IMG/VR virus record: IMGVR_UViG_3300050003_000010
Span: 1-54,921 of that record
DNA: 54,921 bases
Strand: one strand, 5' to 3'
Source: a virus
Lineage: Duplodnaviria; Caudoviricetes
The notes below the pieces were generated by a model that was not told the DNA's origin, ran no database searches, and saw nothing but the letters and a program-made list of their open reading frames with translations. Shown piece by piece: positions 48,126-51,740 of the stretch; within the stretch, counting starts at the first letter, position 1; each line of letters starts with the position of its first letter. A program made the position numbers and the translations under genes.

Positions 48126-48365
48126 CTACAGGTGGTCGAGCAAGGCGGGGCCGAAGAGGACGGCCAGGACGATCGCGGCGATGACGTAGTACTGGATCGG
48201 CAGATCCCCGAGCCTGGTGCGGACCTCGATCATCTGCTCGCCGTCGGGCACATGTCCGCCATGGCGACGGCGTCGATGCTCGTCCCGCTCGTACAAGAAG
48301 GCGTCGTGGCCGTGCACGCGAGGGGACGTCGTGCGGCACTGCTCGCACCGGTAGCGGTAGCTCAT
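48126..48365 (-). CDS. C2H2-like zinc-finger protein with C-terminal TM helix
   Basis: YRCEQC...EHRRRRHGG...YYVIAAIVLAVLFG. Confidence 0.7.
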   Translation of the reverse strand: MSYRYRCEQCRTTSPRVHGHDAFLYERDEHRRRRHGGHVPDGEQMIEVRTRLGDLPIQYYVIAAIVLAVLFGPALLDHL

Positions 48366-48382
48366 GAATGCCCCATTTCGGA

Positions 48383-49369
48383 TCACCGCCCATCATGCTC
48401 GATCCGCCATGCTTCGGGGCCGAGTTCGGGATCACGGACGTACCGAATTCCGCGTTCGGACCACTCTCCGGTCCCCTCTCCGCTGCTCTCCGCCTCCGGA
48501 GAGTTCGCAGGTCGGAGGGGTGGAGAGTGGAGCGGAGAGTGGCCGGGGGGCATCTCGGGGGAGAGCGGCGGGAGTTGGCTGCGGTGCACTCCTGCGCAGC
48601 CCGGTACGCCCCCCGCGCGGAACTTGCGAGTGGGGTCGTAGCCGGCCCTGCGGAGGAGGTCGGACAGGTGCTTGTCGGAGGCCCCGGCCAGGCCCGGGAG
48701 GCGGTCCCGCATGGCCGGCCTGAGGGTGGCCAGGTGGACCCCGTTGTCGTCCCCGATCAGCTCCCGAATCAGGGCCGTCAGCGGGGGCTCGGAGGGGGCC
48801 GCGGGCAGGTCGGCCGCGGGGGCGGCTTTGCGGCGGCCGGCGAATCGGGCGACGAGGCCGCCGCGTTGCTCGGCCGGAGCGGCTGGAGTCTTCTTCGGCG
48901 CGGGCTTGGGGGAGTCGAGTCCGGGAAGTCGGCCCAGGCCCGCGAGGAGCACGGCGGCCAGCAGCCCGCCGGCGGCAATCCACGGCCCGGCCGGGTGCGA
49001 GGCCGCGGTCCGCCCGGCCCCGTACACGACGGCCAGGGCAATGCCGATGCGGGCGAGGGCGCTCCCCCGTCCGATCCGGCCGGACAGCCAGGCACCCGCG
49101 AGGGCCAGGAGGACGCGCAGCCCGCGGCCGAGGACGCGCAGGAGCCGGCCGGTCCCCCGGGCCAGGGCGCGGCCGGCGGTGGCCATGTGTGGCGCGAGGT
49201 CGGTGAGTTGGCGGAGGTCGAGGTATGGCCGCAGGTCCGGCATGGTCGCGATGCCGCGGCCGGGCCGCTCGTCGTCGACCGGGGCGGGGGGAGTGGTGGC
49301 CTGCTCCCCCGGGCCCGGCTCCTCGTCGGGGTCGGGCTCGGGGACGGCGTGCAGGTGGGCGGCGCTCAT
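48383..49369 (-). CDS. Membrane protein with putative C-terminal winged-helix domain
   Basis: Three hydrophobic segments, Pro/Ala linker, then LIRELIG.DNGVHLATL...LSDLLRRAG...AGVHRSQLP. Confidence 0.75.
   Translation of the reverse strand: MSAAHLHAVPEPDPDEEPGPGEQATTPPAPVDDERPGRGIATMPDLRPYLDLRQLTDLAPHMATAGRALARGTGRLLRVLGRGLRVLLALAGAWLSGRIGRGSALARIGIALAVVYGAGRTAASHPAGPWIAAGGLLAAVLLAGLGRLPGLDSPKPAPKKTPAAPAEQRGGLVARFAGRRKAAPAADLPAAPSEPPLTALIRELIGDDNGVHLATLRPAMRDRLPGLAGASDKHLSDLLRRAGYDPTRKFRAGGVPGCAGVHRSQLPPLSPEMPPGHSPLHSPPLRPANSPEAESSGEGTGEWSERGIRYVRDPELGPEAWRIEHDGR
48461..48568. repeat. GGAGAG/CTCTCC repeat cluster (7 copies, inverted arrangement)
   Basis: CTCTCC at 48464, 48476, 48486; GGAGAG at 48498, 48522, 48534, 48560. 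Confidence 0.8.
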
Positions 49370-49773
49370 TCCGCGAGCCTCTGCGCGATCAGGGCGATCT
49401 TGTCGGCGCCGATCCCCCATACTCCGCCGGCGCCGGACGCGACGTACACGAGGAAGATGCCGACCATGGCGACCTGTCGGGTCGAGAGCCGCATGTACAT
49501 GAGCAGGATGACGACGGTGAGGGACATGCCGGGCAGGGTGTAGCCGGGCAGGACGTCGCTGCCGATCCCGACCAGGTCGTTCGCGAGCGTGGATGCGAGG
49601 TCGAAGGGCGGTCCGGCTGCCTTGTAGGCGGAGCCGGCGATCATGGCGAGGGTGAGGGTGGCGCCCCAGCCGAGGGGCTTGGCCTTGCCGCCCGACTTGG
49701 TGCCGAACCACAGGAGCGCGGTGAGGGCGACGGCGAGGCCGACCGGCCCGAGGGTGCCGAGGATGCTGTGCAC
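49366..49773 (-). CDS. Four-TM membrane protein
   Basis: Highly hydrophobic 135 aa; ATGA overlap. Confidence 0.8.
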   Translation of the reverse strand: MHSILGTLGPVGLAVALTALLWFGTKSGGKAKPLGWGATLTLAMIAGSAYKAAGPPFDLASTLANDLVGIGSDVLPGYTLPGMSLTVVILLMYMRLSTRQVAMVGIFLVYVASGAGGVWGIGADKIALIAQRLAE

Positions 49774-49794
49774 GCTGGTCTCCGATCGGGGGCG

Positions 49795-50424
49795 TCAGGC
49801 GGGGATTTCGGTGGTGCCGTACAGCAGGACGCCGACGACGATGGAGATCAGGGGGATGCGGCACGGGAGCGCGAGGGCCCAGTGCCAGCGGCGGGTGGTG
49901 TGGTCGCAGGCCCAGATCAGGGCGGTGACGAGGTACCAGGTGTAGACGTGGACGTCGGTCCACGAGTGGTAGGTGTCGACGAGGTACGCGGTCTGTGCGG
50001 TGGCGAGCTGCGGGAGGTGGAGCGCGAACCCGGCGGCGAGCGCGGTGCTGTTGTACAGCGCCCACCTGTTGCGGGCGGGCATGTGCCGCCACCACTCGAC
50101 GGGCGTCTGCCGGGGGGTGTGGCGCGGCTCTCGGTACCTCGGGCGGGTGTGGGCGCCGGCGCCGCGGGGATCCCAGCGGCGCCGCGGTGTCTCGGGCTCG
50201 TCGTCGCTGTCTTCCTCGTACTCCCCCTCGTCCTCGGGCTCTTCGTCCTCGGGGCCCTCGTCGAGTGCGTCCTCGGTGAGGTCGGGCTGCGGGCCCTTGC
50301 GCCAGTGCGGGATGCGCGGGGTGCGTGCCGGCTTGGTCGGGTCGGTCGGTGCCGGAGCCGCCGGAGCGGAGGGTGCGGCGAAGGGGTCGATCTCGGTTTC
50401 GGGGTTGCTGATGATCTTGGGCAT
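49795..50424 (-). CDS. Membrane protein with acidic/Pro-rich N-terminus and three C-terminal TMs
   Basis: MPKIISNPETE...EDEEPEDEGEYEED...WALYNSTALAAG. Confidence 0.7.
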   Translation of the reverse strand: MPKIISNPETEIDPFAAPSAPAAPAPTDPTKPARTPRIPHWRKGPQPDLTEDALDEGPEDEEPEDEGEYEEDSDDEPETPRRRWDPRGAGAHTRPRYREPRHTPRQTPVEWWRHMPARNRWALYNSTALAAGFALHLPQLATAQTAYLVDTYHSWTDVHVYTWYLVTALIWACDHTTRRWHWALALPCRIPLISIVVGVLLYGTTEIPA

Positions 50425-50488
50425 GGTGGTCCCGTCGTGGGGCCCGGGGGTGGCGCGCGGCGCCTGCTCGCCCGGGGTGGTGTGTGGG

Positions 50489-51529
50489 TCAGGCGGAGCG
50501 CTTGCGGCCTCGCGCGGCCCTGAGGATGTAGTCGCGCGTCGCATTCGGCCAGACTGCACGGACTGCGGCAACGACCTCGTCCGGCGTCTGGGTGACCTCG
50601 TTCCAGACGCGACGGGCAGTGTCTGCCACGGTCTGGTCTGTGTCTGAGGCTGCGTCTGCCTGAATCCAGACTGTGGTCTGTGACCTGCGGGTCTGCTGTC
50701 CGGATGTGTCTGCGTGCACCGACGTCTGCGTGTCCGGCGGCGCGTCCGCGGGTGTCTGGGCGGACGGCTCGGCGCGAACAACCGGTGGCGCCTCAGGCAT
50801 TGCCGGCGCGGGTGTCTGAACCGGCGCCGCAGGCAGTCCGGGCATGTCTGTCGATGGCCCGAACGCGGCAGCCTCGGCGTTGAGAATGCGCCGTGCGCGC
50901 GAGGCCCGACGTTTGACGGCGACCAGGGCGACACCGGCGCTTGCCGCCGCGTCTTCCTGCCTGACCCATGCTTCAGTGAGCGGGTCGAACCGGGGTGCGC
51001 AGTACCGCATCACGACGACGACGGCGACCTTGGCGAGTGCGGACACTCCCGCGCCGGCCACGCCGACCCAGGGCTTGCCGATTGCCCAGCCGTGGGCTGC
51101 GATGGCGGCCATCGCTACGACGAGGGCGGCGTGTCCGGCCTTGCGCGCGCCGGCCGCGCGGCGGGGGTCGAAGCGGCTGAGCCATTCGACGCCGAGGCAC
51201 ACGATCCAGGTCAGGTCGAATACGGCGGCGGCGAGGTATGCGGCGAGGGCCGGGGCGACCAGGCACAGCAGTGCGCCGATCGACACGGTGGACCAGGAGA
51301 CTGCGGCGGTGACCATGACGGACGCCGCGGTGACAATCCCGACGAAGATCACGTGGTCCCAGTCCCGCGGAGGTAGGGGAATGCGAACGGTGTAGGTCTC
51401 CGGAACGACGCGGGTGATGCCGTCGATGGTGTGCTCGACGTGGCGTACGCGTTCGATCTTGCGGGTGCGGACGTCGGGTGTGCCGCCGGCGGTTGGTGGC
51501 GGGGGCCGCATAAGGTTCTGTTCAGCCAT
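50489..51529 (-). CDS. SpdB/DUF2637-like four-TM protein with QT-rich linker and short helical C-terminal domain
   Basis: PLPPRDWD...WSTVSIG.LL...AAVFDL.WIVC...EWL.RFDP.RA; GGAG RBS. Confidence 0.75.
   Translation of the reverse strand: MAEQNLMRPPPPTAGGTPDVRTRKIERVRHVEHTIDGITRVVPETYTVRIPLPPRDWDHVIFVGIVTAASVMVTAAVSWSTVSIGALLCLVAPALAAYLAAAVFDLTWIVCLGVEWLSRFDPRRAAGARKAGHAALVVAMAAIAAHGWAIGKPWVGVAGAGVSALAKVAVVVVMRYCAPRFDPLTEAWVRQEDAAASAGVALVAVKRRASRARRILNAEAAAFGPSTDMPGLPAAPVQTPAPAMPEAPPVVRAEPSAQTPADAPPDTQTSVHADTSGQQTRRSQTTVWIQADAASDTDQTVADTARRVWNEVTQTPDEVVAAVRAVWPNATRDYILRAARGRKRSA
50586..50850. repeat. Intragenic GTCTG (CAGAC) repeat cluster
   Basis: 13 GTCTG plus 2 inverted copies in about 265 bp. 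Confidence 0.85.
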
Positions 51530-51599
51530 CGGGAGGTCTCGTCTCCGCTGGTGGTGAGGGCCCGGTTCTGGGGGTGTGAGAGTCCCTGGAGCCGGGCCC

Positions 51600-51740
51600 G
51601 TCTGCGTCTGTGGCAGTTCGCTGGCGGCGGTGCTGGCCGGCGATGCCGTAGAGCAGCCTACCGGATGGGGCAAGCCGACAGACACGTTCAGACAGGCGTG
51701 TCTGGGTGGTGTCTGGGTGTGTCTGTGGTGTCTGGTCTGG
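51600..51740. repeat. Upstream GTCTG (CAGAC) repeat cluster, putative operator
   Basis: GTCTG at 51600, 51606, 51700, 51711, 51721, 51730, 51735; CAGAC at 51679, 51689. Confidence 0.85.

Follow-up and report, generated by a model that had tools for sequence, protein, structure and literature searches.

A conserved membrane module with an SpdB-like protein and a predicted winged-helix protein in temperate phages of the Streptomycetaceae

How a phage genome behaves in a compartmented, multicellular host is largely unknown: it may stay in the compartment that was infected or it may reach the neighboring ones. Plasmids solve the problem of spread with the motor protein TraB and a set of Spd proteins. 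Whether a phage might do something comparable is the question raised by a row of membrane-protein genes in the IMG/VR virus record IMGVR_UViG_3300050003_000010, the whole of which (54,921 bases) was analyzed here as the window; this row appears to share one protein with the plasmid machinery, and never the motor. We conclude that the row is a membrane module conserved among temperate phages of the Streptomycetaceae and organized around two proteins, gA and gD, with three small membrane partners, gB, gC and gE. By analogy with the plasmid systems, we tentatively favor the reading that the module is a membrane assembly which handles DNA and may spread or stabilize the phage genome in the mycelium.

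The five genes and their proteins

The module consists of five co-oriented, packed genes between 51529 and 48126 on the minus strand, called from codon-position G+C profiles and start codons:

51530-51741, minus strand: upstream non-coding leader of 212 nucleotides (nt), preceding gA
51529-50489, minus strand: gA, 346 amino acids (aa)
50424-49795, minus strand: gB, 209 aa
49773-49366, minus strand: gC, 135 aa
49369-48383, minus strand: gD, 328 aa
48386-48126, minus strand: gE, 86 aa, or 79 aa if translation starts at the ATG at 48365

The gaps measure 64 nt between gA and gB and 21 nt between gB and gC, while gC and gD overlap by 4 nt. The genes for gD and gE either overlap by 4 nt or are separated by 17 nt, the latter with the ATG at 48365, a start that is favored by the family alignment. 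The original prediction, made from the sequence of this record, had described tightly linked membrane genes with a non-coding region of their own, and both the gene spacing and the leader agree with that description. A scan for promoters and terminators across 45000-52300 gave no signal exceeding shuffled sequences. No family was assigned to any of the five proteins in Pfam and NCBIfam scans, and the PHROG matches were confined to gA (phrog_35187, E 3.9e-54), gC (phrog_38677) and gE (phrog_32136), all three being families of unknown function.

As modeled by AlphaFold2, gA has an N-terminal beta-hairpin (residues 22-51), four transmembrane (TM) helices on which hydropathy and model agree, a long helix, a disordered linker rich in Pro, Ala and Thr (228-295), and a three-helix bundle (297-340) that carries a basic tail and has a predicted local distance difference test (pLDDT) score of about 87-89. 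A profile of the gA family aligned with SpdB of plasmid pIJ101 (NC_001387, where it is annotated as “plasmid transfer protein SpdB”) at an hhalign probability (Prob) of 88.9% (E 2.4e-6, 131 columns) and with a seven-sequence SpdB alignment at Prob 92.5% (E 5e-7, 124 columns), the aligned positions including D-x2-W...E, GW...AH and AK..W. When one side was reversed, Prob fell to 0.4-0.6%, and when both were reversed it returned to 84%; the other families compared with SpdB (gC, gD, DUF2637 and gA2, a family introduced below) reached at most 0.8%. Because of these scores and controls, we conclude from the sequence profiles that the gA membrane domain is a remote homolog of plasmid SpdB. A feature search of the ESM Atlas with gA listed clusters annotated with SpdB_N (PF27080), HTH_SpdB_C (PF27079) and DUF2637, the last of which scored 0.88. 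Relatives of gA were few, with six in a word-indexed database of 5.8 billion entries and no match in a scan of viral contigs using gA alone; a tblastn search with pIJ101 SpdB in 50,697 phage records yielded no relative at E <= 1. A Foldseek search of the PDB with the full-length gA model found nothing at E <= 0.001.

The second central protein, gD, is composed of an acidic N-terminus, a conserved PDLRPY motif, three hydrophobic helices, a Lys-rich linker, a winged helix (196-265), a Ser/Pro linker and a C-terminal beta-hairpin. In the AlphaFold2 model the hydrophobic helices are long and the Lys-rich linker is disordered, and residues 196-265 follow the order helix-strand-helix-helix-strand-strand with a two-strand wing (pLDDT of the block 91-95). 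A comparison by VIA aligned this domain with the winged helices of ORC, MCM, Stn1, MarR, Fur and H5 (Z 4.2-5.1, root-mean-square deviation 2.4-4.8 over 59-75 residues), and the best Foldseek rows were all winged helices (linker histones, forkhead) but at E >= 0.43. The full-length model gave nothing against the PDB at E <= 0.001, and the gD profile had no real match among PDB sequences. Structure rows 4-6, 8 and 9 of the ESM Atlas aligned residues 160-275 or so with the C-terminal winged helices of DUF3631, VapE and primase-helicase proteins from phages and integrative elements, and one row was an FtsK/SpoIIIE cluster, all of them rated “under the bar” by the tool. gD differs from these proteins in its membrane anchor and in the absence of an enzymatic domain, and it has no Pfam match. 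In the model, then, the C-terminal domain of gD has a winged-helix fold, from which DNA binding is predicted. Two of the proteins had been expected to end in small soluble domains of DNA-binding type, and the modeled winged helix of gD and three-helix bundle of gA are compatible with this expectation. Both end domains would face the cytoplasm, because Lys/Arg-rich stretches follow the last TM helix.

Apart from the protein of the window itself, gD had 55 relatives, and every row that named an organism was from Streptomyces, Embleya, Kitasatospora or Actinacidiphila. A profile of the winged helix and tail retrieved only 111 proteins among 1.84 billion representatives, some of them shorter (170-290 aa) but likewise made up of membrane helices followed by a winged helix. 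These proteins define a small family of membrane-anchored, putative winged-helix proteins that was limited to the Streptomycetaceae in our samples; no function is named for it in the source records, the PHROGs or the family models seen.

Among the three partners, gC is a small polytopic membrane protein with three to four hydrophobic segments and is the best conserved member of the module. gB has an acidic N-terminal half and a hydrophobic C-terminal third, with one segment above the hydropathy threshold and no family match. gE combines a CxxC and His-rich N-terminal part with a single C-terminal TM anchor, and this motif is kept in nine of 14 family members, four others having a different Cys-rich N-terminus and one being truncated by its gene call. 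The module had been described as four multi-TM genes plus a TM-anchored zinc-finger gene; this agrees with hydropathy for gA, gC, gD and the gE anchor (and with AlphaFold2 for gA and gD), but the multi-TM character of gB is not firm.

No likeness to the other proteins of spd operons was detected. Comparing the five module families with 12 small proteins of three pIJ101-type spd operons (SpdA, orf66, KilB, orf56, DUF6284, an RRQRL zinc-binding protein, DUF6257 and others) amounted to 60 hhalign comparisons, with a best Prob of 3.4%. In one of these operons (NZ_CP108827.1, 4696-5034 of locus L056), a gene for an “RRQRL motif-containing zinc-binding protein” lies directly after spdB, a position that recalls gE, and the two proteins showed no similarity (Prob 3.2%).

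Distribution, carriers and the absence of a translocase

Conservation was assessed by tblastn searches and clustering of loci. Of 14 loci in Streptomyces genomes, 13 keep the order gB-gC-gD-gE, and the remaining one (L016) has just a partial match to gD. Eleven IMG/VR records (L039-L049) all have matches to gC, gD and gE, and ten of them to gB; relatives of gB are found at the same position in all 15 module loci that were clustered. The genome loci and virus records overlap in at least one case, since L043 is the same provirus as L010. In some loci a gene for a NERD-domain protein is inserted, and phage SF3 has a gA relative only. A scan of one genome per species (185,579 species) returned Streptomyces loci only, and the winged-helix profile matched none of 400 other genomes sampled across the class of genome G001; within the family of G001 it matched 19 of 401, including two that were already known.

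The first position is the least constant. It is filled by the gA family in five of the 13 genome loci and four of the 11 virus records, and by an unrelated family (gA2) in L009-L013, which has an N-terminal membrane domain and a C-terminal helix-turn-helix (HTH) of the MerR/HTH_17 type. Proteins of like build are found in L038 and L039, and in L014 there is a borderline DUF2637 protein (22.5 bits against a cut-off of 22.8). The first gene thus varies, yet it keeps a polytopic membrane domain and a C-terminal helical or HTH domain.

The carriers include both isolated and plasmid-like phages. In the isolated Streptomyces phage TurkishDelight, the module corresponds to gp97-gp101, where gp97 (gA), gp99 (gC, annotated as “membrane protein”) and gp100 (gD) match the family models, whereas the assignment of gp98 and gp101 is based on their position and build. 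A circular “plasmid” of 103.5 kb, pSITFR-21c (NZ_CP134608.1; 103,521 bp; L002/L057), carries the module with the NERD-domain gene between the gA and gB relatives; genes for a major capsid protein, a minor head protein and an amidase mark it as a phage-plasmid. A ParB-family partition gene and methyltransferases are also present, and the element resembles the 83-101 kb proviruses and TurkishDelight. Deletion and localization experiments are feasible, because the module is present in a cultured phage and in a phage-plasmid. A reduced version is found in L038 (NZ_CP108372.1, “plasmid unnamed2”, 34,477 bp, circular), in which a short gene of the TM-plus-winged-helix type lies between replication and packaging genes, more precisely between a primase/helicase and an HNH-terminase. 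This element is filed as a plasmid, but it encodes a terminase, portal, prohead protease, major capsid protein and head-tail connector and is therefore a circular phage genome.

The temperate phages, proviruses and phage-plasmid among the carriers, together with a fast turnover of the first gene such as is seen in conflict systems, would also suit an exclusion or defense module, produced by the prophage or at an early stage of infection, that blocks the entry of other phage DNA, conjugative plasmids or actinomycete integrative and conjugative elements, for example by engaging a foreign TraB or the DNA as it enters. One weak Foldseek row for the gA end domain points in the same direction, to the superinfection-exclusion protein Ltp (4eqq_A, prob 0.66, E 1.8, 50 columns). 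This row is not significant, however, and Ltp acts outside the cell, whereas the end domains of the module are predicted to be intracellular. In addition, the module belongs to the block of genes in the lytic direction, and some 26 kb separate it from the genes for the integrase and the regulator. We consider a role in exclusion unlikely.

Returning to a DNA-handling assembly, the most conspicuous difference from plasmid transfer is the lack of a translocase. The FtsK_SpoIIIE domain (PF01580) had no match at E <= 1 in six frames of the whole record, a search in which control genomes were matched, nor was it found in any of 10 related virus records, nine of which are at least 90% complete. That no FtsK or TraB is visible in this genome had been noted before, and the search extends this to the relatives. 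On the complete chromosome that contains locus L004, no FtsK domain lies within 200 kb of the module, and for six further hits to the winged-helix family, from five genomes, the distance to the closest one is at least about 96 kb. The situation is different for DUF2637: of its 31 hits in five Streptomyces genomes, at least 10 were less than 1 kb from a frame of 477-593 aa with an FtsK domain, a kind of neighbor that the module lacks. In three pIJ101-type plasmids, spdB shares its cluster with an FtsK-type gene, directly after tra-spdA in pIJ101 and at a distance of 0.6-1.4 kb in the other two. Since no translocase is found next to it, we regard the module as a phage feature and not as a captured integrative element.

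An arrangement that needs no motor is a membrane organizer of phage replication or packaging, in which anchored DNA-binding domains would draw replicating phage DNA to the membrane within a single compartment, with no movement of DNA between compartments; p16.7 of phage phi29 offers an analogy. The FtsK absence fits such a function, as do the predicted cytoplasmic DNA-binding folds. So does the gene order: on the circular map, the minus strand runs from early and replication genes through small early genes to the module, and then through a few small genes to the packaging and virion genes, which places the module between the early/replication genes and the terminase, with all of them pointing the same way, and the 34-kb phage L038 has its short form in a comparable place. 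A replication organizer would not explain the SpdB ancestry of gA, nor the swapping of the first gene among SpdB- and DUF2637-style proteins, which are typical of transfer regions. Five membrane proteins also seem many for a simple tether, and PDB profile searches, Foldseek and VIA gave no sequence or fold match to known replication organizers. On balance, we find this explanation doubtful.

Comparison with plasmid spreading systems

If the module is instead an assembly that spreads or stabilizes phage DNA, the spd operons of plasmids are the closest comparison. Thoma et al. (2015, PMC4447253) describe these operons as consisting of three to seven small, diverse genes with stop/start overlaps, which encode membrane and DNA-binding proteins and are translationally coupled. 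The organization of the module into small overlapping genes matches this description. Like gA, SpdB of pIJ101 has a membrane domain, a helical stretch, a variable linker and a small C-terminal helical domain, and is encoded within a tight operon of small membrane genes; gA differs in its extra N-terminal beta-hairpin, in a C-terminal domain with no detectable relation to that of SpdB and in the lack of an adjoining tra/traB gene. A resemblance to the spd genes had been proposed for the module as a whole, and of this the homology of the gA membrane domain to SpdB is borne out by the hhalign comparisons, while gB to gE have no likeness to proteins of spd operons.

The comparison with TraB is similarly mixed. 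Both gD and the FtsK-like translocase TraB end in a winged helix, which in TraB reads the clt repeats, and the repeat cluster in the 3' part of a module gene recalls these repeats, which lie near traB (PMC4447253). The record has no such ATPase domain, however, and the winged helix of gD had no detectable likeness to the C-termini of three TraB proteins (hhalign Prob <= 0.4%). DUF2637 (PF10935) proteins, which adjoin TraB-like translocases in integrative elements of Streptomyces, recall gA in having a polytopic N-terminus and often a C-terminal HTH, and a borderline one takes the gA position in L014.

SpdB2 of pSVH1 is reported to be an oligomeric protein with four TM helices that binds double-stranded DNA and forms pores, and to promote spheroplasting, while the pocks formed during plasmid spreading represent zones of slowed growth (PMC4447253). 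Combined with the SpdB-like nature of gA, these observations raise the thought of a kil-like complex that perturbs or permeabilizes the membrane and thereby slows growth or septation, or times lysis. Against this stands a separate lysis cassette: the only other cluster of membrane proteins in the genome consists of two proteins adjoining the endolysin, which are likely holins. Two conserved domains of the DNA-binding type would also be left without explanation. We give such a growth modulator little credence.

The idea that phages use Spd proteins is not new. Thoma et al. (2015, PMC4447253) suggested that putative SpdB2 homologs on the actinophages phiC31 and VWB help phage DNA to spread, so that the earlier characterization of the module as an undescribed system was too strong. 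The homolog in phiC31 is probably gp25 (36291-37007 of L058), in which four TM helices at the N-terminus are followed by a linker rich in Pro and Glu and by a C-terminal HTH. This is the build of the first gene of the module, and the HTH matches that of the gA2 class in L009-L013 (87.9%, 24 columns), but there were no relatives of gB to gE among the phiC31 proteins tested. Its gene is the last of the early region and precedes int and the cos-terminase end. In our literature searches, neither the five-gene module nor TurkishDelight was the subject of a study, and nothing on the function of a phage SpdB went beyond the statement in PMC4447253. Within the reach of these searches, three findings are new: the conserved module of five genes, the family of membrane-anchored winged-helix proteins, and the fact that a translocase is consistently missing.

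One hypothesis is that the five proteins assemble into a single complex in the inner membrane and keep phage DNA at the hyphal membrane. That they act together is suggested by their arrangement as an operon with overlapping genes and an unchanging order, and DNA would be bound by the module proteins at the cytoplasmic side. A replicating or episomal phage genome might then be distributed or retained among the hyphal compartments, resulting in spread, stable inheritance or both; for plasmids, spreading has been suggested to stabilize inheritance as well, and plasmid-phages occur in Streptomyces (Thoma et al., 2014, PMC4170104). A motor would have to come from outside the module, from FtsK-type proteins of the host or the TraB of a resident element, or there may be none. 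The stricter version, in which the five-protein assembly is a Spd-like apparatus of the phage that captures DNA with its two cytoplasmic DNA-binding domains and passes it through cross-walls without virions by borrowing an FtsK or TraB motor from the host or a resident element, seems improbable to us; if it were true, a single infection or lysogenization event could take over a whole mycelium. Several features speak for the broader reading of a DNA-handling assembly: the SpdB-like gA, the build that it shares with SpdB and phiC31 gp25, the proximity of DUF2637 genes to TraB-like translocases, the published properties of Spd proteins, the predicted winged helix of gD, the conserved synteny, the plasmid-like carriers pSITFR-21c and L038, the exchange of the first gene among proteins of like build, and a lysis function with its own membrane genes beside the endolysin.

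A number of observations weigh against this interpretation. Plasmid spreading needs TraB, and pock formation is lost without it (PMC4447253), but no FtsK or TraB domain was found in the phage, in its relatives or in the neighborhoods searched. The link to Spd proteins is limited to gA, with none for gB, gC, gD or gE, and even in gA the last 70 residues have no detectable kinship to the SpdB C-terminus (hhalign Prob 1.2%). In the ESM Atlas, just four of the ten best family-bearing gA hits concur, and the tool itself labels the assignment “probably wrong”. Membership of gA in DUF2637, for which a comparison had been proposed, was rejected at the sensitivity of the searches made, as hmmscan gave no match at E <= 0.1 and hhalign against a 20-sequence DUF2637 alignment gave Prob 2.3%. 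The winged-helix matches of gD are generic and of middling quality, and the repeats described in the next section are limited to the present phage among the relatives compared. Finally, a survey of synteny among hosts had been proposed as a test of the hyphal connection. The module was indeed limited to the Streptomycetaceae in our samples, which fits a link to hyphal hosts, but plain phage-host phylogeny could explain this limit equally well.

Repeat clusters and the surrounding phage genome

Each of the two genes with putative DNA-binding domains had been thought to contain its own cluster of repeats. The rows in and near the module are as follows:

51679-51734: leader copies of CAGACAC, four direct with a spacing of 9-11 nt and one inverted
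51698-51735: row of tandem repeats in the leader
50619-50818, minus strand: five gA-internal copies of CAGACAC and further CAGAC pentamers
48461-48568: repeat cluster in gD, CCACTCTCC and its complement

For gA the claim is supported by a strong enrichment. Ten of the 12 copies of CAGACAC in the genome are located within 50619-51734, five in the leader and five in the 3' part of gA, where the linker is encoded, and the shorter word CAGACA has 12 copies in 1341 nt against six in the remaining 53.6 kb (Poisson p ~1e-18). The same test in 12 other loci of the gA family gave nothing comparable (best p ~2e-5, uncorrected for about 2,000 words), and the cluster was not found in the closest relative, fragment L039, which carries a different first gene. 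The CAGACAC copies within gA and in its leader may serve this phage as a binding or regulatory site of its own. For gD the claim does not hold: its cluster falls where a peptide motif is repeated, HSP...GEW, which recurs in relatives as PES/SGE. We regard the cluster as a repeat at the protein level, which is the simplest explanation, and rejected it as a DNA site.

With CAGACAC as operator, the module proteins could also be imagined as membrane-tethered transcription regulators of the late genes. The copies in the leader of the module are spaced by about one helical turn and the module is situated just upstream of the packaging genes, both of which would suit such a role. Half of the copies, however, are inside gA and not at a promoter, the cluster is absent from 12 relatives, and regulation does not require five conserved membrane genes. 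Among the functions considered here, we would be most surprised by this one.

PHROG scans of the window proteins identified a temperate siphovirus with the following genes:

43195-44475: large terminase
41388-42938: portal
38053-39117: major head protein
30815-34072: tape measure
25864-27369: endolysin
20678-22030: regulator
17075-18319: tyrosine-type integrase
9918-11009: RecT
4757-5743: O-like replication initiator
without coordinates: minor head protein and minor tail protein

The CheckV completeness is 100% and the G+C content about 71%; the sequencing runs listed for the record were of soil-metagenome DNA, with no RNA among them. With terminase, portal, capsid, tape measure, minor tail and endolysin genes in place, the phage has the complete virion module that had been attributed to it. 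Bases 1-132 are repeated at 54790-54921 with one mismatch, which implies that the genome map is circular or permuted; the record is classed as “linear” despite this terminal recurrence, which points to a circular or circularly permuted assembly.

Other repeats and small genes were observed outside the module. Tandem repeats of 11 and 22 nt (3.4-3.8 copies) are found at 5181-5311, within the gene for the O-like replication initiator, and look like the iterons of an origin, as in lambda O. A comparable word cluster is present in locus L007, where CCGGAAC occurs in 11 copies at 4310-4470 within an initiator-like gene. Just upstream of the gene at 45018-45605 and the terminase block, a segment of 440 nt (45606-46045) has no gene in the crude call and contains 9-nt tandem repeats at 45681-45722 and 45883-45991 as well as a cluster of the word GGGGCAA; it could be a missed coding sequence of the collagen-like (Gly-X-Y) type, or a packaging or regulatory site. 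Downstream of the module, the minus strand at 46433-46903 encodes a further membrane-anchored protein, in which a single TM helix at the N-terminus and a Pro-rich linker precede a C-terminal domain containing two Cys residues; an HTH_17 or excisionase-like gene at 47084-47284 follows it.

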